Virus record (IMG/VR): IMGVR_UViG_3300011334_000294
Span: 1-34,735 of that record
Origin: a virus
Lineage: Duplodnaviria > Caudoviricetes
Length of the DNA: 34,735 bases
Strand: one strand, 5' to 3'
Of this stretch, positions 1-34,735 are shown one piece after another; within the stretch, counting starts at the first letter, position 1; the number at the start of each line of letters is the position of its first letter. A program made the translations under genes and the position numbers. Under the pieces are notes generated by a model. It worked only from the letters and a program-made list of their open reading frames with translations, was not told the origin of the DNA and made no database searches.

Positions 1-237
1 TGCGACGCGCTGGCGGTCAACGTGCCTGCTGGCGTAAAGATACCGCAGGCGGCGCTGCTACACGCGCTTAAAGAGGCTGGCTGGGTTGACATGGGGCGCA
101 TCGCTTGCGTTGACCATCCAACTAAGAAACACATCTTTGCCGCGCCTGACGTGAAGAAACGTAACAAGTCAGACTTGCGCCGCTTGGCGGAAGACTTGCC
201 TAAGTCCAGCATCATGCCGAACATCGGCAAGAATTGA
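1..237 (+). CDS. C-terminal fragment, probably of the primase-helicase that begins at 32981 (5'-truncated)
   Basis: Frame 1 is open from base 1 (CDALAVNVPAGVKIPQAALLHALKEAGWVDMG...IGKN*). Same strand as the 3'-truncated primase-helicase at the window end. Confidence 0.7.
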   Translation, partial: CDALAVNVPAGVKIPQAALLHALKEAGWVDMGRIACVDHPTKKHIFAAPDVKKRNKSDLRRLAEDLPKSSIMPNIGKN

Positions 238-263
238 CAACCATTTGGTTGCAATGATATAGG
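234..263 (+). promoter_or_regulatory. sigma70-type promoter for the putative sRNA
   Basis: Perfect TTGACA at 234-239, then 18 nt, then TATAGG at 258-263. No ORF follows on this strand. Confidence 0.55.
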
Positions 264-330
264 TTCAGGGTTGGCGTTGCTCCGCTGGCCTGATTAAACC
301 CCCGGCGTCCTCACTCCGCCGGGGGTTTTT
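264..330 (+). ncRNA. putative two-hairpin trans-acting antisense sRNA
   Basis: Hairpin 1 at 265-293 (loop TTGCTC; G-U pairs form only on the + strand). Hairpin 2 at 296-328 (12-bp stem, loop TCCTCACTC) followed by a T run. Both loops are complementary to several translation initiation regions. Confidence 0.7.
296..330. terminator. bidirectional intrinsic terminator between convergent operons (also the sRNA 3' hairpin)
   Basis: AAACCCCCGGCG-tcctcactc-CGCCGGGGGTTT followed by TT. Confidence 0.85.
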
Positions 331-829
331 ATTTGTCAGAACCGAATCTCATCGTCGGCCCAGTCGTAAATATCCCACCCGAAGTTATCGAACAGGAATT
401 GGTGCAGGGGCATTGCCCCTTCTCCCGTATCTCCAACCCACGGGCTTCCAGTGCGGCGCGCAAACGGCCCACAAGGTCTTTGCGGAGGAGGTCTGCGTAT
501 TCAGCCTTAACCGAATCATACGCGCCGACATCTATATCGGCCAACAGATCAACCAGCGGGTCAGGCTTGGGCTTGGGGATGATGAAGCGGTCAAAGCCTT
601 CCCATCCTTCTTGGCGGTAGAGATCGCCCGCGAAGAAAGCGGCTTCATCGCTCACCTCTTGCTTAAAGTCAGCGAGTTCCTGCTTGGTGGCTTCGTGCTG
701 TTCGATGGCGCGGCATAGTGCTTCGGTGTATGGGGAAACCTCGCGGCGCACTGCGCGTTTGTCGCTTAGGTTGCGTTCGGCCAGCACTTCGCGCACCAGC
801 GCCAAGGCTTTTGCTTCAATGTCTGTCAT
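329..829 (-). CDS. hypothetical early protein (MTDIEAKALALV...)
   Basis: RBS AAGGAG; ATGA overlap with the upstream stop. The last ~27 aa may be a read-through extension over the 25-aa ORF. Confidence 0.7.
   Translation of the reverse strand: MTDIEAKALALVREVLAERNLSDKRAVRREVSPYTEALCRAIEQHEATKQELADFKQEVSDEAAFFAGDLYRQEGWEGFDRFIIPKPKPDPLVDLLADIDVGAYDSVKAEYADLLRKDLVGRLRAALEARGLEIREKGQCPCTNSCSITSGGIFTTGPTMRFGSDK
336..413 (-). CDS. 25-aa acidic/aromatic peptide MPLHQFLFDNFGWDIYDWADDEIRF
   Basis: Translated by hand. RBS GAGAAGGGG lies directly upstream and matches the junction style of other genes in this operon. Confidence 0.55.
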   Translation of the reverse strand: MPLHQFLFDNFGWDIYDWADDEIRF

Positions 830-1023
830 TTGCTTTGCTCCTTCTCGCGCACTTGGCGCGTTATCAGTGTGTGGTCGTTCATTGCTTGCCACCGCTTCGG
901 TGTGGCTGTCTGGGCCAGCACTTCAGCCTCTCGCTGCGTCCGTGCCGAAACGCGAACAAGGCCGCGATGCTGCGCGGTGCGGGTGCGTATGACTTCGACT
1001 TCGTAGATGGTGTAGGCAAACAT
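826..1023 (-). CDS. hypothetical protein, 65 aa
   Basis: Tiles the operon; stop overlaps the next start. Confidence 0.65.
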   Translation of the reverse strand: MFAYTIYEVEVIRTRTAQHRGLVRVSARTQREAEVLAQTATPKRWQAMNDHTLITRQVREKEQSK

Positions 1024-1028
1024 CTGTT

Positions 1029-1214
1029 TTACTCTTTCAGCGCCTTTTCAGCGTCTTCGATCAATTCAATGGGCGGCCACCGCAGATAGGACACATGGTC
1101 TTTGCCTATCACACCCAGAAACTCCAGATATTCCATCAAGCGGTAGGCTAAGGTCGCTTCCGCCCGTTCGGCGTATCGTTCGGGCAGTGCGAGTTCATCA
1201 TCATCATCGGTCAT
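1029..1214 (-). CDS. hypothetical protein, 61 aa (MTDDDDELALPERY...)
   Basis: RBS AAGGA; ATGA overlap. Confidence 0.7.
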   Translation of the reverse strand: MTDDDDELALPERYAERAEATLAYRLMEYLEFLGVIGKDHVSYLRWPPIELIEDAEKALKE

Positions 1215-1603
1215 GCTGCTAGTTTCCTTTCGCATGGGTTGCATATTTCGTCTGTCGTGCGCCTGAACAGGCGGCAGCGCGGGCATTTGTCGCCGAGGGC
1301 AGGGAACCACATCGCAGCAACGCGTGGCAGCTCCGGATCGGGACGCTCGGCCTCATGCGCTGCTGGCGGAAACTTGTCGCCCATGACGATGCACACGCCT
1401 TCAATGCCGCTGGTCTTGCACATCGCAGCCATATCGGAATTGCGGGCGAACAACCCTGCCGTGGTGGGGTCGTCGGTATACAGCATGATACTGCTATCCT
1501 CTTGCTCCGTCACACGCCCAAGGCGGCGCTGTTCTTCGCCAGCCAGCAATGACGCGCGTCTGGCTAGGCGCATGACTGCGCCCCACTCGCCTATATCAGT
1601 CAT
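1211..1603 (-). CDS. stand-alone protein resembling the IleRS C-terminal domain, with an FPG/IleRS-type zinc finger
   Basis: W..V.R..R...A.E..R, D.A..C.TS.IE, P.VA...A.G.KCPRC-x10-CNPC follow the type 1 IleRS C-terminus as I recall it. RBS GAGGGG. Confidence 0.7.
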   Translation of the reverse strand: MTDIGEWGAVMRLARRASLLAGEEQRRLGRVTEQEDSSIMLYTDDPTTAGLFARNSDMAAMCKTSGIEGVCIVMGDKFPPAAHEAERPDPELPRVAAMWFPALGDKCPRCRLFRRTTDEICNPCERKLAA

Positions 1604-1866
1604 TTGCTCTGCCCCTCTGTGTCGTGCAGCACTTCCACACGCCATTTCAAATCGGCATAGCCGCGCTTCCCGCCGTTGCCGTCTGCGAAGGGTTTAGCTG
1701 CTTCAATCCGTCTGCCTTCGCTTTCGGCTTCATGCTGCGTATTAAATCCGTCAAACAGCGTAAACTTGCGCGCGTCATGTCCGCCGCGATATTCGCAGAC
1801 AAGGGCATACGGCGTCCCTAACTTAACAAGCGTTTCGCGTGTCACTTGACGTTCTGTGGCTTTCAT
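1600..1866 (-). CDS. hypothetical protein, 88 aa (MKATERQ...)
   Basis: RBS GAGG; TAATG coupling. Confidence 0.7.
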   Translation of the reverse strand: MKATERQVTRETLVKLGTPYALVCEYRGGHDARKFTLFDGFNTQHEAESEGRRIEAAKPFADGNGGKRGYADLKWRVEVLHDTEGQSK

Positions 1867-2051
1867 TATCTTAACCTCGTTATGAACGTGACGCCTTCCA
1901 CAGTGCGGCATTTAAACATCTTTCCGTTGCGTATGCCGTATTGGCTCACGTTGCGGCTGGTGCGCTTTACATCGCCTTTCTTGGTGGCTGGCATGGTGGC
2001 GACTTCGCCGACCTCTAGCGTTCCCATTGGGTAAATCATTGGTCTTGGCAT
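1866..2051 (-). CDS. small basic phage protein, possibly nucleic-acid binding
   Basis: YP...LEVGE...G..F..R...G...TR pattern common in small phage proteins. RBS AAGGAG. Confidence 0.7.
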   Translation of the reverse strand: MPRPMIYPMGTLEVGEVATMPATKKGDVKRTSRNVSQYGIRNGKMFKCRTVEGVTFITRLR

Positions 2052-2185
2052 TTGGCTTGCTCCTTTTCATGTGTTGCGCGGCGTTCCGCGAATGTCTTGC
2101 CGTCTGCGCCCCGTAGCGGCCATGCGCTGTCGGATGAGACGCGGTGCTTGCGCCCCATAGGGGCGGCTTGTTGTGGTTTAATCAT
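2036..2185 (-). CDS. hypothetical protein, 49 aa (MIKPQQAAPMGRKHRV...)
   Basis: Translated by hand; RBS AAGGA; fills the operon gap. Confidence 0.6.
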   Translation of the reverse strand: MIKPQQAAPMGRKHRVSSDSAWPLRGADGKTFAERRATHEKEQAKCQDQ

Positions 2186-2196
2186 GGGTCTGTCCT

Positions 2197-2541
2197 TTAG
2201 ATTTCTATTTGCGTTGCTGGCTTGGCGCGTTTGTCCATCATGCGATTGAGCCAGTATTGCTTTTCTTCGCCTGTGGCGCGTGCTGCATGGTATTTGAACA
2301 ACGCTAGGGCTAGGTCGTCGTAACCTGTCCGCTTGTGCGTCACTATTAGCGGTGACGGCATCATGGCGGCTAGGTCGGTGCGTCTTGGGCGCTCTCGGCC
2401 CTTGCGTGATAGCGTCCAGTCAATGTCCTTGACTGTGAGGCGCATATCGAATTCGCGGTTTACATGGTGCATCACAGCCGTTTTATCGGTTATGTAGGTG
2501 CATAAGTGCAGGATGCGCTTGCGGACGGCATATTCTATCAT
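2197..2541 (-). CDS. hypothetical protein, 114 aa
   Basis: ATGA coupling within the operon. Confidence 0.7.
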   Translation of the reverse strand: MIEYAVRKRILHLCTYITDKTAVMHHVNREFDMRLTVKDIDWTLSRKGRERPRRTDLAAMMPSPLIVTHKRTGYDDLALALFKYHAARATGEEKQYWLNRMMDKRAKPATQIEI

Positions 2542-2738
2542 GGCCGGGCTTTCTTTACATATTTGCCTGACTTAGGGTCGCGCAAGACTGCGTGACGTTT
2601 CCAGAATAGCAGTTCCTTAGTGTCGCGTGTCCATGCGGATTGCCATTTGTCGCCGCGCTTGACGGCTTCCCACAACAGAAAGGCGGTAAACAGTTGCGCG
2701 GCTATCATTAGCGCGATGATGATTTCGTATTGGTTCAT
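2538..2738 (-). CDS. hypothetical membrane-anchored protein, 66 aa
   Basis: N-terminal hydrophobic helix; C-terminal RDPKSGKY; RBS GAGGA. Confidence 0.7.
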   Translation of the reverse strand: MNQYEIIIALMIAAQLFTAFLLWEAVKRGDKWQSAWTRDTKELLFWKRHAVLRDPKSGKYVKKARP

Positions 2739-2741
2739 TGG

Positions 2742-2801
2742 TTAATCCTCTAATAATAAGGTTAATAGGAATAGGGCGGCTCCAGCGATAACCGCTATCA
2801 T
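2742..2801 (-). CDS. 19-aa hydrophobic micropeptide MIAVIAGAALFLLTLLLED
   Basis: ATG overlaps the upstream TGA and the ORF exactly fills the intergenic gap. Confidence 0.55.
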   Translation of the reverse strand: MIAVIAGAALFLLTLLLED

Positions 2802-3010
2802 TCTGCTATATCGTCCCGTAGGGCGTTATTCTCGGCCACTAGGCGGTCGTATAGCGTCTGCAAGTGCTCTAGCTCTTCTTCGACGCTCACCAACTCGCGT
2901 AGGCGTTCTGCCAGCACAAGGATTAAATCGTCGCCGTTGTCGCGTTCGCGCCCCATGTTGATTAATTCGCTGTCCGATAACATGCGTAGGTAGTTTCGAT
3001 CAAAAGTCAT
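2798..3010 (-). CDS. hypothetical coiled-coil protein, 70 aa
   Basis: RBS GGAG; heptad-like Leu/Glu pattern. Confidence 0.7.
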   Translation of the reverse strand: MTFDRNYLRMLSDSELINMGRERDNGDDLILVLAERLRELVSVEEELEHLQTLYDRLVAENNALRDDIAE

Positions 3011-3027
3011 GTTAATCTCCGTTGTGG

Positions 3028-3192
3028 TTATGTGAAGCGCGCGATTTTGTCGCGCTGTTCAATTAGAAATTCCAGCACTGTGTCAAATTCAGCAAAGTCG
3101 GTTAGCGCGATATCATGCACCTGTCCGCTGTCGATTAGGTCGCACAGGTCAAAATAGATTTCCTGCAATGTTGTTTTCTCTTTGTCTGTCAT
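3028..3192 (-). CDS. acidic hypothetical protein, 54 aa (MTDKEKTTLQEIYFDL...)
   Basis: RBS AAGGGG; D/E-rich. Confidence 0.65.
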   Translation of the reverse strand: MTDKEKTTLQEIYFDLCDLIDSGQVHDIALTDFAEFDTVLEFLIEQRDKIARFT

Positions 3193-3193
3193 T

Positions 3194-3391
3194 TCATGCC
3201 CCTTGTGCTTTTGAAATCGCGCCTTTGATGATTGCGCGAATATAGTTGTAGGGATCAGTGCCATCGGCATTAGGCGCTAGGTAGGCGTCAACGTCATGCA
3301 ATGCTTGCAATAGGTCAGGCGCGGCATCGCGCAGCATTTTATCGCGCTTGCGGCGCTCCTGCGCGGCGGCTTCATAGTCAAATGGTGGCAT
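3194..3391 (-). CDS. hypothetical protein with an AAPDLL...AI.KA.G motif
   Basis: Common phage early-protein motif; RBS GGGAG. Confidence 0.75.
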   Translation of the reverse strand: MPPFDYEAAAQERRKRDKMLRDAAPDLLQALHDVDAYLAPNADGTDPYNYIRAIIKGAISKAQGA

Positions 3392-3489
3392 TATGCTCCC
3401 TTCACTGTTTTAGCGATTGCGTAGATCGATAGGGCGCCAACGCCCCAAAAGAACATCTCGGCTAGGGCGTGAATGATAGTTGCTGTCAT
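3391..3489 (-). CDS. 32-aa single-TM peptide MTATIIHALAEMFFWGVGALSIYAIAKTVKGA
   Basis: Translated by hand; RBS GGAGAGG; coupled at both ends. Confidence 0.65.
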   Translation of the reverse strand: MTATIIHALAEMFFWGVGALSIYAIAKTVKGA

Positions 3490-3719
3490 GCGTCCTCTCC
3501 CTCTTCCCATTCAGTCCAAAATATTTGGATATCGCCGATTTCGTCGTCGTCGTCTTTATTGCCGATATAAAATTCTGCAAAGTCTTCGGGCGTGACGTTC
3601 TCGTGTAGGCAGTGGTCACTGCAATAATGCTCGTTTGCGCCCTCAATGACGTAGCCCTCGTTCATGCCAGCGCCGCACTCGTCGCACATGTGAGCATATT
3701 TGATCCCGTCGATAATCAT
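3486..3719 (-). CDS. acidic Zn-binding protein, 77 aa
   Basis: CDEC...YCSDHC; very D/E-rich. Confidence 0.75.
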   Translation of the reverse strand: MIIDGIKYAHMCDECGAGMNEGYVIEGANEHYCSDHCLHENVTPEDFAEFYIGNKDDDDEIGDIQIFWTEWEEGEDA

Positions 3720-3985
3720 GCGTCCTCTCCATCCATCATGTCGGCGTGATGTTCTGCCAGCGCGTCCCAGTCGACGCTGTTGAGGTCAAGCATATCCCAG
3801 ATGAAGCCGGCTGTTGTGCTATCGCGTCCAATTAGGTCGTGAACATACTCTTCCACCATGTCGCGGCAATATTCCGCCGTGACGTTAACGCCGTTCTCTG
3901 TATCGTCGGCCCAAGTATCGCCAAACCATAGGTTGACTGTCCAAGTGGCGGCATTGCGCCATCCGTTGCAAGTATTGTCTGTCAT
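3716..3985 (-). CDS. acidic conserved phage early protein, 89 aa
   Basis: NGW.N..TW...LW and ..VDW..LA motifs; RBS AGGAG. Confidence 0.8.
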   Translation of the reverse strand: MTDNTCNGWRNAATWTVNLWFGDTWADDTENGVNVTAEYCRDMVEEYVHDLIGRDSTTAGFIWDMLDLNSVDWDALAEHHADMMDGEDA

Positions 3986-4050
3986 AGTTTCTCACTCCTA
4001 TTTGGCACTAGCGCCATCCTCGGCGCGGATTGCTCCGCGCTCCGGTGGTG
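3986..4050 (-). promoter_or_regulatory. structured leader carrying both sRNA target motifs
   Basis: GCGCGGA-GCAA-TCCGCGC hairpin, TGGCG-CTAG-TGCCA hairpin, and ATAG-GAGTGAGAAA-CTAT hairpin overlapping the ATG. Confidence 0.6.
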
Positions 4051-4329
4051 TTAGGCGTAGCGTTTCGCCTTATGTTGTGCGGCTAACTCACGCTTGAATT
4101 GCTTAGTGTAGACGCCGTTAAAATGGCGCAATGCTTGGAATAGCCTATCGACCTTAAACTTGGCGGCTTGCCAGCGCGGGTCGGCTTTGACGCTATCGGG
4201 CGTTAGGTTCATGCAGCGCGGCGCATCGCCAGCTAACTTATCTGTTAGCGCGTTAAGCGCATCGGTTGCATCACTCAATTCGGCATTAAGCGCATCGCGC
4301 TGTTGCGTGGCTGTTATAAAGTCAATCAT
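4051..4329 (-). CDS. hypothetical protein, 92 aa
   Basis: LTPDSVK...F..LR.FN motif; RBS AGGAG. Confidence 0.75.
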   Translation of the reverse strand: MIDFITATQQRDALNAELSDATDALNALTDKLAGDAPRCMNLTPDSVKADPRWQAAKFKVDRLFQALRHFNGVYTKQFKRELAAQHKAKRYA

Positions 4330-4541
4330 GCTACGGCGCTCCTAAATGCGTCTATAACGTCTGCGCCATTGCCAAGCGTAAAGACTTGAACGCGGCAATC
4401 GGTGCACCCGTGAATGTCTGTCAGTTGCGCGATAACGCGTTGCGCTTGCGCCATGCTGGCAATGCCAGCCGTTTCGGACACTAGCAAAGTTTCGTCGTCG
4501 CTATGCCGCGGCTTGCCCCAAATGATATATTCTTTGTTCAT
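4326..4541 (-). CDS. hypothetical protein, 71 aa
   Basis: RBS AGGGG; ATGA coupling to the next gene. Confidence 0.7.
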   Translation of the reverse strand: MNKEYIIWGKPRHSDDETLLVSETAGIASMAQAQRVIAQLTDIHGCTDCRVQVFTLGNGADVIDAFRSAVA

Positions 4542-4551
4542 GGTATCGCCC

Positions 4552-4725
4552 CTATAGGTAAACTGGACCAGTGATGTGCGCGTTAGTTAGTCGGCGCACT
4601 AGGTATATCTGCGATAGTTTGCGTAGCGCCATGAACGATTGCACGGCGGCAAAAACGTCCCGTCCATGTTCAACCGAATAGCACGGGCCTAACTTACCCA
4701 TGTAGTGTATTATATATGCGTTCAT
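4552..4725 (-). CDS. first gene of the leftward operon, 57 aa (MNAYIIHYMGKLG...)
   Basis: Translated by hand; RBS GAGGAG. Confidence 0.6.
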   Translation of the reverse strand: MNAYIIHYMGKLGPCYSVEHGRDVFAAVQSFMALRKLSQIYLVRRLTNAHITGPVYL

Positions 4726-4752
4726 CGTATTGCTCCTCGCTGTCTTGATACC

Positions 4753-4783
4753 CTCTTATCTACCCTCTTTCGCATAGTGTCAA
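4753..4783 (-). promoter_or_regulatory. leftward early promoter
   Basis: TTGACA on the minus strand (4783-4778) followed by GGTAGATAAGAG about 15-19 nt downstream. Confidence 0.6.
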
Positions 4784-4802
4784 CAGCAAAATATGTTGCA
4801 CT

Positions 4803-5110
4803 AAAAATAGTCATTTGGCCTAAAATGATAGCCTAACTTTTGCCTAACTAATGACTATTTTTGATCCCGCGATTTTGGCGCGAAAATTGTTAGGCAAAAA
4901 GTTAGGCGAAATAGTCATTTGTTAGGCTATGTTTTCACCCTAAATTGCCTAGGAAAAAGTCAAGGGTTTCTGCGTGTCTGCGAGGATTCTAGGCTATTTA
5001 GGCTATGGAATGTATAGTCAGTTTGAGAAAAGTATATAATTAACCTATATGGTTAAAATATAACTTTCTAGCGAACGACTCCCAAATCGATTGCCTAGAT
5101 TGCCTAGATG
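4803..5110. repeat. array of G(C/A)CTA / TAG(G/T)C repeats with nested inverted repeats flanking an AT-rich core; putative replication origin
   Basis: At least 15 copies, many 9-13 bp apart. IRs at 4803-4815/4850-4862 and 4831-4848/4889-4907. AT-rich stretch 5028-5070. Tandem GATTGCCTA at 5089-5106. Confidence 0.75.
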
Positions 5111-5135
5111 TTTAACAATTGTAAACTTTTCCGGT

Positions 5136-5177
5136 CATGACCTACGCAGTCATGGCGCCATGATTTACGCAGTCATG
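5136..5177. repeat. two 19-bp direct repeats CATGA(CC/TT)TACGCAGTCATG
   Basis: At 5136-5154 and 5159-5177; each has CATGA...TCATG dyad ends. Confidence 0.8.
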
Positions 5178-5430
5178 ACATGCAATCGCATAGCCTAGAC
5201 CGCCCATGCAAAATGTTGCACCGCAACACAGCCAAACAACCAATATGTTTTTCTTAATGCGAGCGAGTCGCAATAGGGAAAAGGCCAACCGAAAATCCAG
5301 CCTATAGAACAAAAGCGGAACGCTGCTGGCATGGGGGTGGGGGGTGCAGGGCCGAGCGCCGCGTGACTGTCACGGGCACGGTACGCAAACAATTTTTATT
5401 TTTTTTAAAATCTCACTGCATCAAAGCCTG

Positions 5431-5459
5431 TTGCGTATCTGCGCTCAGTAGATTATTGT
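5431..5459 (+). promoter_or_regulatory. rightward promoter, probably producing a leaderless terS mRNA
   Basis: TTGCGT-N17-TATTGT-N7-ATG; no SD sequence. Confidence 0.55.
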
Positions 5460-5466
5460 ACGCCCA

Positions 5467-28884: not shown

Positions 28885-28980
28885 AAAAGGGGGCTACTAC
28901 AAAATTTTTTGCATTTCAAGGGTTGCATCAAATTTTGTTGTATGTATTATGGCCGTTCAAACAGTAGAGTGAGGTACGAT
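28885..28980. promoter_or_regulatory. divergent promoter region of the replication module
   Basis: Minus strand: TTGAAA-N17-TAGCCC-N6-ATG. Plus strand: TTGCAT-N16-TATTAT at 28923-28950. Confidence 0.5.
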
Positions 28981-30783: not shown

Positions 30784-30845
30784 GGGGTGCGAAAGCCGGA
30801 GCGTGCCACCGCGCTCCGGCGAGTAGCGGAAGAGTGAGAACTTCT
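30784..30845 (+). promoter_or_regulatory. structured leader with an sRNA loop-2 target
   Basis: GCCGGAGCGTG-CCAC-CGCGCTCCGGC stem; GAAG-AGTGAGAA-CTTC hairpin just before the ATG. Confidence 0.55.
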
Positions 30846-32970: not shown

Positions 32971-32980
32971 GGAGCAAGCG

Positions 32981-34735
32981 ATGAGTGAGGATCGCACGAA
33001 ATTCATAGAGTATATAACGGGATTGGCGGCAGATAATGTCGGCGAGACAGCCCTTGTTGTGCGGCAGAAGCCGCAGCACGACAGCGACGGCAACATGATA
33101 TTCCACGCAGACGGCGCGCCGAAGGCGACGTTCCCTGCGTTCCTGCCAGAAAAGACCCGCATGAAAGAAGGCGAGGCATGGTACGTCAACACAGGCTCGT
33201 TCATCGTTGACCGCTTTGTAGACGGCAAGCCGTCGGCCAAGTCGAGCAACGTCGAGTATGTGCTGTTCATGATGCTGGACGACGTCGGCACTAAGTCAAA
33301 AGAACCGCCGCTTGCGCCGACATGGGTATTGGAAACCAGCGAAGGTTCGTTCCAGTGGGGCTACGCGTTCAGCGAACAACCAAAGAAGGGCGACTTCTGC
33401 GCTGCCATCAAGGCCATCGCGGACGCTGGCTACACTGATCCCGGCGCGACTAACGCTGTCCGCAACTGCCGTATTCCCGGCAGCGTCAACCTGAAGCAGG
33501 GGCGCAACAACTTTCCTGCGCGGCTGGTATCGTTCAACCCTGAGCGTGAATACACGCTGGACGAGATATGCAAGGCGCTGGACGTTACGCCAGAGGAGGG
33601 CGACACAGCCGAATATAAAGCGGTGCAGTTGCGCGACACTGGACTAGACAACGTCCTGACATGGCTTGCCGAAAAGAACCTAGTCTTGTCGCACGTCAAC
33701 GCTGACGGCTGGTGCGCCATCGTCTGCCCTAACCATGAGCAACACAGCGACGGCATGATTGAGGCGCGCTACAAGCCGCTCGACCGTTCGTTCTGCTGCT
33801 ACCATGGGCATTGCCAAGACTTAGACAGTCGCACCTTTCTTGATTGGGTAGCCAATGAAGGCGGCCCGAAGGTAACGCCGGGCTTGCGTGATGAACTAAT
33901 CGCTGAACGTCTGGCGTCGATGTATGAGAAAATCTCACCAACCGAAGCGTTCCCCGATGAGGCCGCAGCGCGTGTGCGTGAGGTCGAAAAGAAAGAGGCG
34001 GGACGGCTGGAACAAAGCGAGTGGTTCGAGCGTTTCGCGTATATCCAGTCCGATGACTGCTATTTCGACATGGTGACGCGTCAAGAGATAGCACGTAACG
34101 TCTTCAACGCCCTGTTCCGTCACGTTGACTGCCGCTCCATCCACAAAAAGACGCAGCGCGTGCAGTCGTCCATCTATTTTGACGAGCGCCGTCAGGATCG
34201 CGGTGCGCCTGCGCTGGCTGCCGTGACGTTCGCCGCTGGCGATGATACCTTGGTGACGCGCGACGGGTTGGTTTACGGCAACCGCTGGGTGGATGGCCGC
34301 CCTGACGTGTCGGACAGCGACACAATCGCCGATTATGACGTAGAGCCGTGGCTTCAGCACTGCCGCGACTTGATAGCGGATGATAAGGAGTTAGACCATA
34401 TCCTCGACGCTATGGCGTTCAAGATACAGCATCCGAACGTCAAGATTAACCATGCCATCCTGATTGGCGGCGATGAAGGCGTTGGTAAGGACAGTATGTT
34501 CCAGCCGTTCCTTTGGGCGCTGGGCGGTCAGCACTGGCGCAATCGGTCAGTCATTGAGGCTGGCGGGTTGGACAGCCAGTGGGGCTATGCGCTTGAGGCT
34601 GAAGTTGTCATCCTGAACGAGTTGAAGGAACAAGAGGCGCGCGAACGCCGCGCTATGGCTAACAAGTTGAAGCCGCTGATTGCTGCGCCACCTGAAACGC
34701 TGACAGGCAACCGCAAGGGGATGCACCCATACGAG
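32981..34735 (+). CDS. primase-helicase (RepB-like primase, Zn domain, SF3-like NTPase); 3'-truncated
   Basis: Missing from the ORF track because it has no stop in the window. MLDD, ETSEGSFQWGY, RIPGS.N, CPNHEQH..CYHGHC, Walker A GDEGVGKD, Walker B VILNE. Confidence 0.9.
   Translation, partial: MSEDRTKFIEYITGLAADNVGETALVVRQKPQHDSDGNMIFHADGAPKATFPAFLPEKTRMKEGEAWYVNTGSFIVDRFVDGKPSAKSSNVEYVLFMMLDDVGTKSKEPPLAPTWVLETSEGSFQWGYAFSEQPKKGDFCAAIKAIADAGYTDPGATNAVRNCRIPGSVNLKQGRNNFPARLVSFNPEREYTLDEICKALDVTPEEGDTAEYKAVQLRDTGLDNVLTWLAEKNLVLSHVNADGWCAIVCPNHEQHSDGMIEARYKPLDRSFCCYHGHCQDLDSRTFLDWVANEGGPKVTPGLRDELIAERLASMYEKISPTEAFPDEAAARVREVEKKEAGRLEQSEWFERFAYIQSDDCYFDMVTRQEIARNVFNALFRHVDCRSIHKKTQRVQSSIYFDERRQDRGAPALAAVTFAAGDDTLVTRDGLVYGNRWVDGRPDVSDSDTIADYDVEPWLQHCRDLIADDKELDHILDAMAFKIQHPNVKINHAILIGGDEGVGKDSMFQPFLWALGGQHWRNRSVIEAGGLDSQWGYALEAEVVILNELKEQEARERRAMANKLKPLIAAPPETLTGNRKGMHPYE

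Follow-up and report, generated by a model that had tools for sequence, protein, structure and literature searches.

Comparison of the window (the whole 34,735-nt stretch of DNA analyzed here, which is nearly the whole 35-kb genome of a phage; single contig, G000) with related phages points to a real, conserved, and uncatalogued phage small RNA (sRNA) gene. The predicted RNA exposes two loops that are complementary to short sequences, here called tags, at the ribosome-binding sites (RBSs) of early and replication genes. The comparative sequence evidence that the phage's own early and replication starts are targeted as a class is strong. We consider it probable that the RNA acts in trans as an antisense RNA, occluding the tagged RBSs of early and replication mRNAs and thereby exerting delayed negative feedback.

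The sRNA element sits between the primase stop and the converging block of small genes (Table 1). The labels early, replication, and late derive from gene position and annotation, not from expression. Integrase, antirepressor, and HTH repressor genes were not found among the window proteins scanned (55 in one scan and 27 in another). Named relatives of the phage are MW202483 (polymerase, 61%) and DSL-LC05 (coat, 76%). In GTDB genomes, no integrated relatives or prophages were detected; the 10 matches came from contigs no longer than 29 kb, which belong to metagenome bins of unrelated taxa. The 740 nt between the divergent early and terminase operons (4726-5466) are non-coding and AT-rich, contain repeated TTGCCTAG/TAGGCTA and GCAGTCATG motifs, and are possibly an origin or packaging region. 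A CAAAAT..TTGCA motif is located beside both divergent promoter regions (4787-4800 and 28900-28913).

Table 1. Positions of the gene blocks, the predicted sRNA, and the loop-complementary tags in the window
Feature	Position	Strand	Remarks
Virion genes	5467-26801	+	P22-like portal, coat, head closure, ejection
Helicase and VRR-nuclease		-	
Replication operon	28981 to end	+	Exonuclease, putative SSB, small Zn-finger-like gene, DNA polymerase, primase
Primase C-terminus	1-237	+	Continues from window end
Block of small genes (labelled early)	329-4725	-	
-35 element TTGACA	234-239	+	Overlaps primase stop TGA (235-237)
Extended -10 element	TG 255-256, TATAGG 258-263	+	18-nt spacer; final position not T
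Predicted small RNA, ~63 nt	268-331	+	Start predicted from the -10 element
Hairpin 1	269-290	+	Loop GTTGCTCC; seed TGCTCC 278-283; TTGCTCC at 277-283
Hairpin 2, intrinsic terminator	298-330 (stem-loop 298-326)	+	Loop TCCTCACTC 308-316; U-run 326-330
Primase start, both tags	32971-32991	+	ATG 32981; GGAGCAA 32971-32977 upstream; GAGTGAGGA over codons 1-4; GAGTGAG 32983-32989
Loop-2 tag, DUF2800/PD-(D/E)XK exonuclease start	28967-28974	+	ATG 28981; GAGTGAG 28967-28973
Loop-2 tag, small Zn-finger-like gene preceding DNA polymerase	30832-30838	+	ATG 30846
Loop-1 tag GGAGCAA, first early gene	4730-4736	-	ATG 4725
Loop-2 tag, DUF7249 early gene	3991-3998	-	ATG 3985; GAGTGAG 3991-3997
6-nt loop-1 tag GGAGCA, early gene	3394-3399	-	ATG 3391; absent from the sequence-only reading
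Loop-1 tag GGAGCAA, 61-aa early gene	2057-2063	-	ATG 2051
6-nt loop-1 tag GAGCAA, early gene	1604-1609	-	ATG 1603; absent from the sequence-only reading
Loop-1 tag GGAGCAA, last early gene, converging on element	835-841	-	ATG 829
9-nt loop-1 match	4030-4038 (GGAGCAA 4030-4036)	-	In GGA-GCAA-TCC tetraloop hairpin ~45 nt upstream of the 3985 start; doubtful as sRNA target

Judged by sequence signatures, the element has the features of trans-acting anti-Shine-Dalgarno (anti-SD) sRNAs: its own promoter, an intrinsic terminator, no coding function, and structure. The sequence-only reading had already located the promoter, both loops, and the GGAGCAA and GAGTGAG sites correctly; refinements concern the overlap of the -35 element with the primase stop, the -10 element, the primase start, and the start of the small Zn-finger-like gene. 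It had also placed the RNA on the + strand because of G-U pairs in hairpin 1. In the window, the fold z-score is -3.5 for the + strand and -5.1 for the minus strand. Since the minus strand also folds strongly, the choice of strand rests on the relatives and not on the window alone. There, hairpin 1 is more stable on the + strand in 52 of 70 variants, with 136 G-U pairs on this strand versus 25 on the other. Furthermore, the hairpin 2 stem is followed by a mean of 6.9 T in 8 nt, compared to 2.5 A before the stem. The -10 variants TATACT and TACAAT occur in relatives. Because the last base of the -10 element is rarely T (10 of 57 tabulated sRNA promoters), an alphaproteobacterial host is hinted at for the sRNA phages, in line with the relevant part of PMC7703639. 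An operator-like palindrome in the promoter spacer was dismissed, as it is not conserved. A search for transcripts of the sRNA yielded two short contigs in one run, which are probably DNA.

In the window, the tags favor early/replication starts more than chance would. Using starts called by a simple script with an SD score, applied identically to both gene classes, a 7-mer tag was found at 7 of 25 early/replication starts but at none of 23 late starts (p=0.0065). When matches of at least 6 nt were counted, which include a further 6-nt site at start 3719, the numbers were 10/25 and 1/23 (p=0.0035). The earlier observation that neither motif occurs at structural gene starts thus stands for the 7-mers. 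As a control for after-the-fact picking, we determined the commonest 7-mers at the 25 early/replication starts, and GGAGCAA and GAGTGAG were among the top four (4 starts each, 0 late). As a second such control, 450 hairpin loops were scanned genome-wide on both strands, and only the two loops of the element match 4 early starts. Five more 7-mer copies lie away from starts (1502, 10555, 11858, 12905, and 28013). The tags overlap the SD at a spacing of 6 to 9 nt, and the loop-2 site of the primase doubles as codons M-S-E. The seeds are just 6 to 9 nt long and overlap ordinary SD sequences; GGAGUGA is near an ordinary SD variant.

Since the loops mirror the RBS tags of early and replication genes, not those of virion genes, the RNA likely turns down the translation of the former class. 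The term "master switch" used previously is an overstatement, as 10 of 25 early/replication starts carry a tag. The match in the leader at 4030-4038, proposed as an additional target, is present, but its hairpin and its distance from the start make this role doubtful. The leaders at 30784-30845 (+) and 3986-4075 (-) are structured; in each, a GC-rich hairpin begins with CCGGAGCG and ends with GAGTGAGAA(A)CT before the ATG. These hairpins may gate the access of loop 2. The 61-aa early protein was considered as a hidden regulator and rejected: it has no Pfam family, and its Atlas matches were <0.9.

Next to the tags, the conservation of the element supports the RNA. Primase searches of IMG/VR and GTDB resulted in 183 de-duplicated loci with the primase end included. 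The element was detected 3' of the primase in 133 of the 134 loci with a primase at least 65% identical to P0001, and in none of the 49 loci below this identity. The lone miss (L098) was a failure of the regular expression, as the element is visible in this locus. A quickly built primase tree from 47 selected rows groups the carriers in a single clade (99% SH-aLRT), at whose base the loops are TTGCTCC and CTCACT. For covariation analysis, 50 two-hairpin copies with TGCTC-type loops were picked from 114 distinct copies and aligned. In this alignment, 95.5% of the stem cells are paired, and double-sided changes were found in 15 of 17 stem pairs (6/7 in hairpin 1 and 9/10 in hairpin 2). The stem covariation exceeded all slid controls, and none of 500 shuffles scored as high. 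While the stems vary, loop 1 keeps CTC and loop 2 keeps CTCAC without exception.

The promoter is conserved as well. A TTG-N21-TA pattern is present upstream of 110 of the 114 distinct copies, compared to 17 of 1,127 control windows, and the TG of the extended -10 element, which was not imposed by the search, is present in 104 of these 110. In the ~70% clades, the promoter is kept though it lies inside the primase coding end; AAAATGTTGCAT, which may be compared with the CAAAAT..TTGCA motif of the window, is located at the -35 position of several of these promoters. In the carrier loci, the element always closes a + strand replication operon. A relocated copy was observed in the 58% clade (L259:9489-9549, minus strand), upstream of the primase and on the opposite strand, with the loops TTGCTCC and CCACTAC; in this locus, GGAGCAA is present at the primase-adjacent gene and at one early gene.

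Variants with three hairpins were also detected (L037, L051, L056, L057, L060-L066, and L072-L076). Their middle hairpin resembles a decayed duplicate of hairpin 1, and no targets were found for the middle/third hairpin in 11 loci. Of 41 exact 17-mer matches, L094, L097, L105 or L099, and L110, among those listed, were discarded as chance matches in unrelated phages. The sRNA model did not match the cultured or named relatives HTVC023P, CRP-901, MinM2, and DSL-LC04, and it matched DSL-LC05 by its terminator only. A blastn comparison of both RNA versions with GenBank phages gave partial matches only, with E values of 0.1 or worse. DSL-LC05 contains a TTGCAC-17-TAGAAT promoter at the primase stop, followed by a hairpin, an unpaired CTTCTCCTT, and a terminator (L503:1926-2041), which is possibly an analogous sRNA; AAGGAGAA is present at two of its + strand starts, but GGAGAA is also found at late starts. 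In the ~60% clade, a multi-hairpin tract with the last loop CGCTCACGC lies on the minus strand (L209:12330-12490; also L208, L210-L219, L221, and L224). It is possibly an inverted relative of the element. CGTGAG was seen at a start before the polymerase in L209, L215, and L217.

The tags were then counted in the relatives with a simple gene caller, using protein families as units. In the near clade, tags are present in 34 of 92 early/replication families but in none of 31 late families (p=7e-6), and in 62 of 105 families GGAG is followed by TG (32) or CA (30). None of 56 families in clades at ≤63% is tagged, though GGAG is equally common. These data bear on the reading that the element is a mere bidirectional terminator between convergent operons and that the match between loops and RBSs reflects ordinary SD usage. 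Consistent with it, convergent genes flank hairpin 2, which is a terminator, each loop includes half of an anti-SD, and GGAG itself is enriched at early starts. However, terminator loops need no conservation, yet CTCAC is invariant while the stems change. Moreover, the SD-matched comparisons are strongly skewed, and clades lacking the element have GGAG as often (35%) but GGAGCAA at only 7 of 534 starts. We therefore regard a simple terminator as extremely unlikely.

For the proposed antisense RNA, changes in the loops should be mirrored by the tags. GGAGCA is present at 156 of 1,100 starts where loop 1 is TGCTCC, versus 1/36, 0/31, and 5/152 in three lineages with changed loop 1. Genomes with at least two GGAGCA starts were 50 of 62 with TGCTCC, 2 of 14 with TGCTCT, 1 of 11 with a changed loop, and 1 of 23 without the element. 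Similarly, GGAGTG is found at 86 of 1,204 starts with loop CTCACTCC and at 0 of 290 with CTCACTAC or CTCACTGC. At late starts, GGAG is present at 20/347 in TGCTCC loci versus 18/119 in loci with no element and 19/77 in C-rich ones. The primase start follows loop 2: it is ATGAGTGAG with CTCAC, ATGATTGAG with CTCAAT, and ATGAACGAC where loop 2 is lost. Two cases are compensatory. In L174 and L175, the loop CTCAAT is accompanied by the primase start ATGATTGAG, and in L203, L232, and L250, the loop TTTCCCCT is accompanied by AGGGGAA, which is present at the primase and also at a single early gene; in the latter three, loop 2 and its primase site were lost together. These compensatory changes are two single lineages, and the other contrasts are at the clade level, share ancestry, and are not independent trials.

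The expected covariation of loops and targets was thus seen in the two compensatory lineages and in the fading of tags with changed loops, but it has exceptions. No covariation is seen at position 7 of loop 1 (in ATGCTCC genomes, GGAGCAA was counted 52 and GGAGCAT 12 times, of 530), L174 keeps GGAGCAA at the primase despite its changed loop 1, and L205 keeps AGTGAG although its loop 2 is CTCACC. A G-U wobble test had too few counts. In the clades with a C-rich loop 1, no matching tag was seen, and loop 2 and AGTGAG at replication genes (32/152) are retained. The clades in which loop 1 turned C-rich are those with rearranged genomes (L184-L200, L205, L229, L230, L174, and L175); in these, the early block lies on the + strand, upstream of the exonuclease, and the element is followed by the VRR-nuclease.

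The retention of loop 2 in the C-rich clades is also what would be expected if the hairpins acted mainly in cis, the replication mRNA's 3' end folding onto its own RBSs (primase, exonuclease, and polymerase unit). The constant position of the element at the end of the replication operon and the presence of both tags at the primase start fit such folding. Against it stand the dedicated promoter of nearly all copies, the relocated copy on the opposite strand in L259, and the fact that most tags in the window's clade belong to the opposite-strand early operon, which is reachable only in trans. Action mainly in cis is accordingly very unlikely in our judgment.

The association of loops and tags recurred in a second phage family. 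Searching IMG/VR with a loop-only pattern gave 66 matches: the window's primase accompanied 39, 1 was a short fragment of the window's group, 20 belonged to a second group, and 6 are probably chance. The second group (L301, L305, L309, L311, L315, L316, L318, L324, L326, L332, L336, L338, L340, L344, L346, L349, L354, L360, L361, and L365; G001-G005) differs from the window in capsid, portal, and primase (records of 39 to 64 kb), and its capsid is 65% identical to that of HTVC023P-type pelagiphages. Its RNA has the same loops, new stems, and its own TTTACG-17-TATA promoter and is located at the same place after the primase. In 5 of the 20 genomes, covered in full or nearly so, GGAGCA was detected in 38 of 74 GGAG starts of the early strand versus 2 of 66 of the virion strand (classes were assigned by strand, and some called genes are spurious); the p values per genome are 0.00013, 0.0028, 0.012, 0.048, and 0.11. 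In 35 of 35 cases the base preceding GGAGCA is A, matching the U after UGCUCC in the loop of this family; as expected from the loop, the tag is extended to AGGAGCAAA. Together with the near-clade counts, this speaks against ordinary SD usage as the explanation. Three GenBank records, OQ594354, OL906435, and PP438419, have equal length (65,014), an identical capsid score, and three different cyanobacterial hosts; their host labels may be unreliable.

An HTH gene (phrog_35) is located next to the RNA in the second family. The former idea that the RNA acts in place of a missing protein repressor is not supported. The suggestion of RNA immunity is likewise unsupported, because lysogeny genes and integrated relatives were not detected for the window's phage and because the second family keeps the HTH gene.

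In L182, which belongs to the window's group, there are early genes of types also found in G004 (VRR-nuclease-like MAKTPEK, and MSEYVE), both with AGGAGCAAA. A gene pool shared by the two groups is therefore likely. These genes, the loops common to both families, and the conservation of loop 2 in the second family, which has few targets of its own (AGTGAG 6/172 versus 2/214), would suit an RNA that mainly hits other genomes, be it early genes of a related phage infecting the same cell (superinfection exclusion) or mRNAs of the host, or that activates instead of repressing. Yet tags on own genes would not be kept if only others were hit, the tags track the phage's own loop, and overlap with the SD at the observed spacing is the usual geometry of repression. 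Such a role seems improbable to us.

The tags could also be bound by a phage or host RNA-binding protein, a translational repressor or enhancer, with minus-strand read-through of the hairpins serving as a decoy. The strong minus-strand fold in the window, with GGA in the loops, and the hairpin 1 of the second family, which is Watson-Crick paired on both strands, would allow this, and for the SAS tags of cluster K mycobacteriophages the relevant part of PMC3203893 leaves the choice between an RNA and a protein partner open. However, promoter, U-tail, and G-U pairs all favor the + strand, and two unrelated tags would need two proteins changing their specificity in step with the loops. In addition, the two families differ in their minus-strand operon, which is early in one and late in the other. 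We hold a protein decoy to be highly unlikely.

In summary, an antisense RNA directed to early and replication RBSs, as proposed in the sequence-only reading, is well supported: the element is conserved, its stems covary, tags are enriched in SD-matched comparisons, loops and targets change jointly, and the pattern is replicated in the second family. According to the model we favor, the RNA would be transcribed by the host sigma70 RNA polymerase from a promoter of its own; a second source might be the replication mRNA, at whose 3' end it lies. Each loop would combine half of an anti-SD (CUCC or CCUC) with a private extension (UUG or ACU) conferring specificity. By base pairing with the tagged RBSs, the loops would block 30S loading at the mRNAs of the primase, the exonuclease, the polymerase unit, and small early proteins, and virion genes would be spared. 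As template copies rise, the RNA would accumulate, which would produce a timer-like delayed negative feedback. Hfq may assist, a guess based on the U-tail.

In lytic phages, proteins (sigma factors, repressors, and antiterminators) are usually held responsible for temporal control. The phage RNAs covered in the part of the review literature considered here target either a single phage gene or genes of the host. In the present case, an entire class of genes appears to be addressed by a single tiny RNA via an RBS barcode, across two phage families. The compensatory pairs offered by nature could be exploited, and the RNA and its tags suggest an orthogonal sRNA/RBS part for synthetic control.

No known RNA family was recognized: the Rfam 15 covariance models, including C4, AbcR/ar15, and ar14, gave no match in the window at the gathering threshold. 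The best sub-threshold score was that of NsiR1 (28 of 39 bits), which is owed to the terminator, and ar14 scored 18.2 of 58.8. With suhB/MmgR (RF00519; gathering score, 41 bits), the window copy did not match at E values up to 10; the second-family copy reached 24.9 bits (E 0.0019) and the L232 copy 13.3. The GUUUGCUCCUU of the second family aligns to GUUUcCUCCCU of the model. The conserved UUUCCUCCCU motif of RF00519 is absent, the window loop being GUUGCUCCG and that of the second family UUUGCUCCUU (8/10 identical). The phage RNA resembles suhB/MmgR (alpha-r8) in its similar size and in an anti-SD motif followed by a terminator, but two positions of its seed are different, a hairpin encloses this seed, and a second seed lies in the terminator loop. 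A tentative and rather unlikely scenario is that phages captured a host alpha-r8/MmgR-type anti-SD RNA and recoded its seed as a private channel (the GGAGCAA and AGTGAG tags), and that two families with unrelated capsid and primase genes share it and trade early genes. The RNA would then serve as an RNA-only timer of the early-to-late transition and also block superinfection across families, the RNA from one phage silencing the early genes of the other.

In the c4 and P4 CI RNAs, the seeds are displayed in loops. The c4 RNA of P1/P7 controls ant expression (PMC8201110), c4 and P4 CI are RNase P substrates (PMC5499578), and the sar RNA of P22 blocks the initiation of ant translation (PMC12197685). 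Like them, the RNA described here is a short phage RNA predicted to control phage genes by base pairing. The c4, CI, and sar RNAs serve one operon each in temperate phages with protein repressors. In contrast, the present RNA has many unrelated predicted target genes on two operons, no lysogeny genes were seen among the window proteins, integrated relatives were lacking in GTDB, and there was no Rfam match. Furthermore, c4 and CI are processed by RNase P from operon leaders, whereas this RNA is located at an operon end and has its own terminator.

A close functional parallel is bacterial. The trans-acting sRNAs AbcR1 and AbcR2 (alpha-r15) of Sinorhizobium meliloti have two anti-SD seeds, which independently repress sets of mRNAs at the RBS (PMC8844928). 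In both systems two distinct anti-SD seeds are present, and those of the phage RNA are predicted to be unpaired and are complementary to RBSs of several unlinked mRNAs. AbcR1/2, as far as described in this source, regulate host transporters with the generic seeds CUCCUCCC and UUCCCCUC; unlike them, the present RNA is phage encoded, both of its seeds are in hairpin loops (one of them the terminator), and the tags are on the phage's own genes. The trans-acting sRNA SviR of the Vibrio PLE satellite lowers the translation of phage targets and thus acts across two genomes (10.1101/2022.04.08.487710); it belongs to a conflict between satellite and helper, and a class-wide RBS tag is not reported in the part considered. 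A description of the RNA was not found in the literature covered, and it may be among the unannotated candidates of Fremin et al. 2023 (PMC10690425), whose alignments were built from viral and phage data; four tables of this source were searched without a match.

With respect to the tags, a parallel is SAS of cluster K mycobacteriophages, an SD-overlapping tag found only at the starts of non-structural genes (PMC3203893). It is 13 bp long and has a different sequence, and no partner RNA is named in the relevant part of that source. In the window, the tags are 6 to 9 nt long and of two kinds, and a complementary RNA gene is present in the same genome. The proposed sRNA thus offers a testable answer to the question of the purpose of early-gene RBS tags such as SAS.
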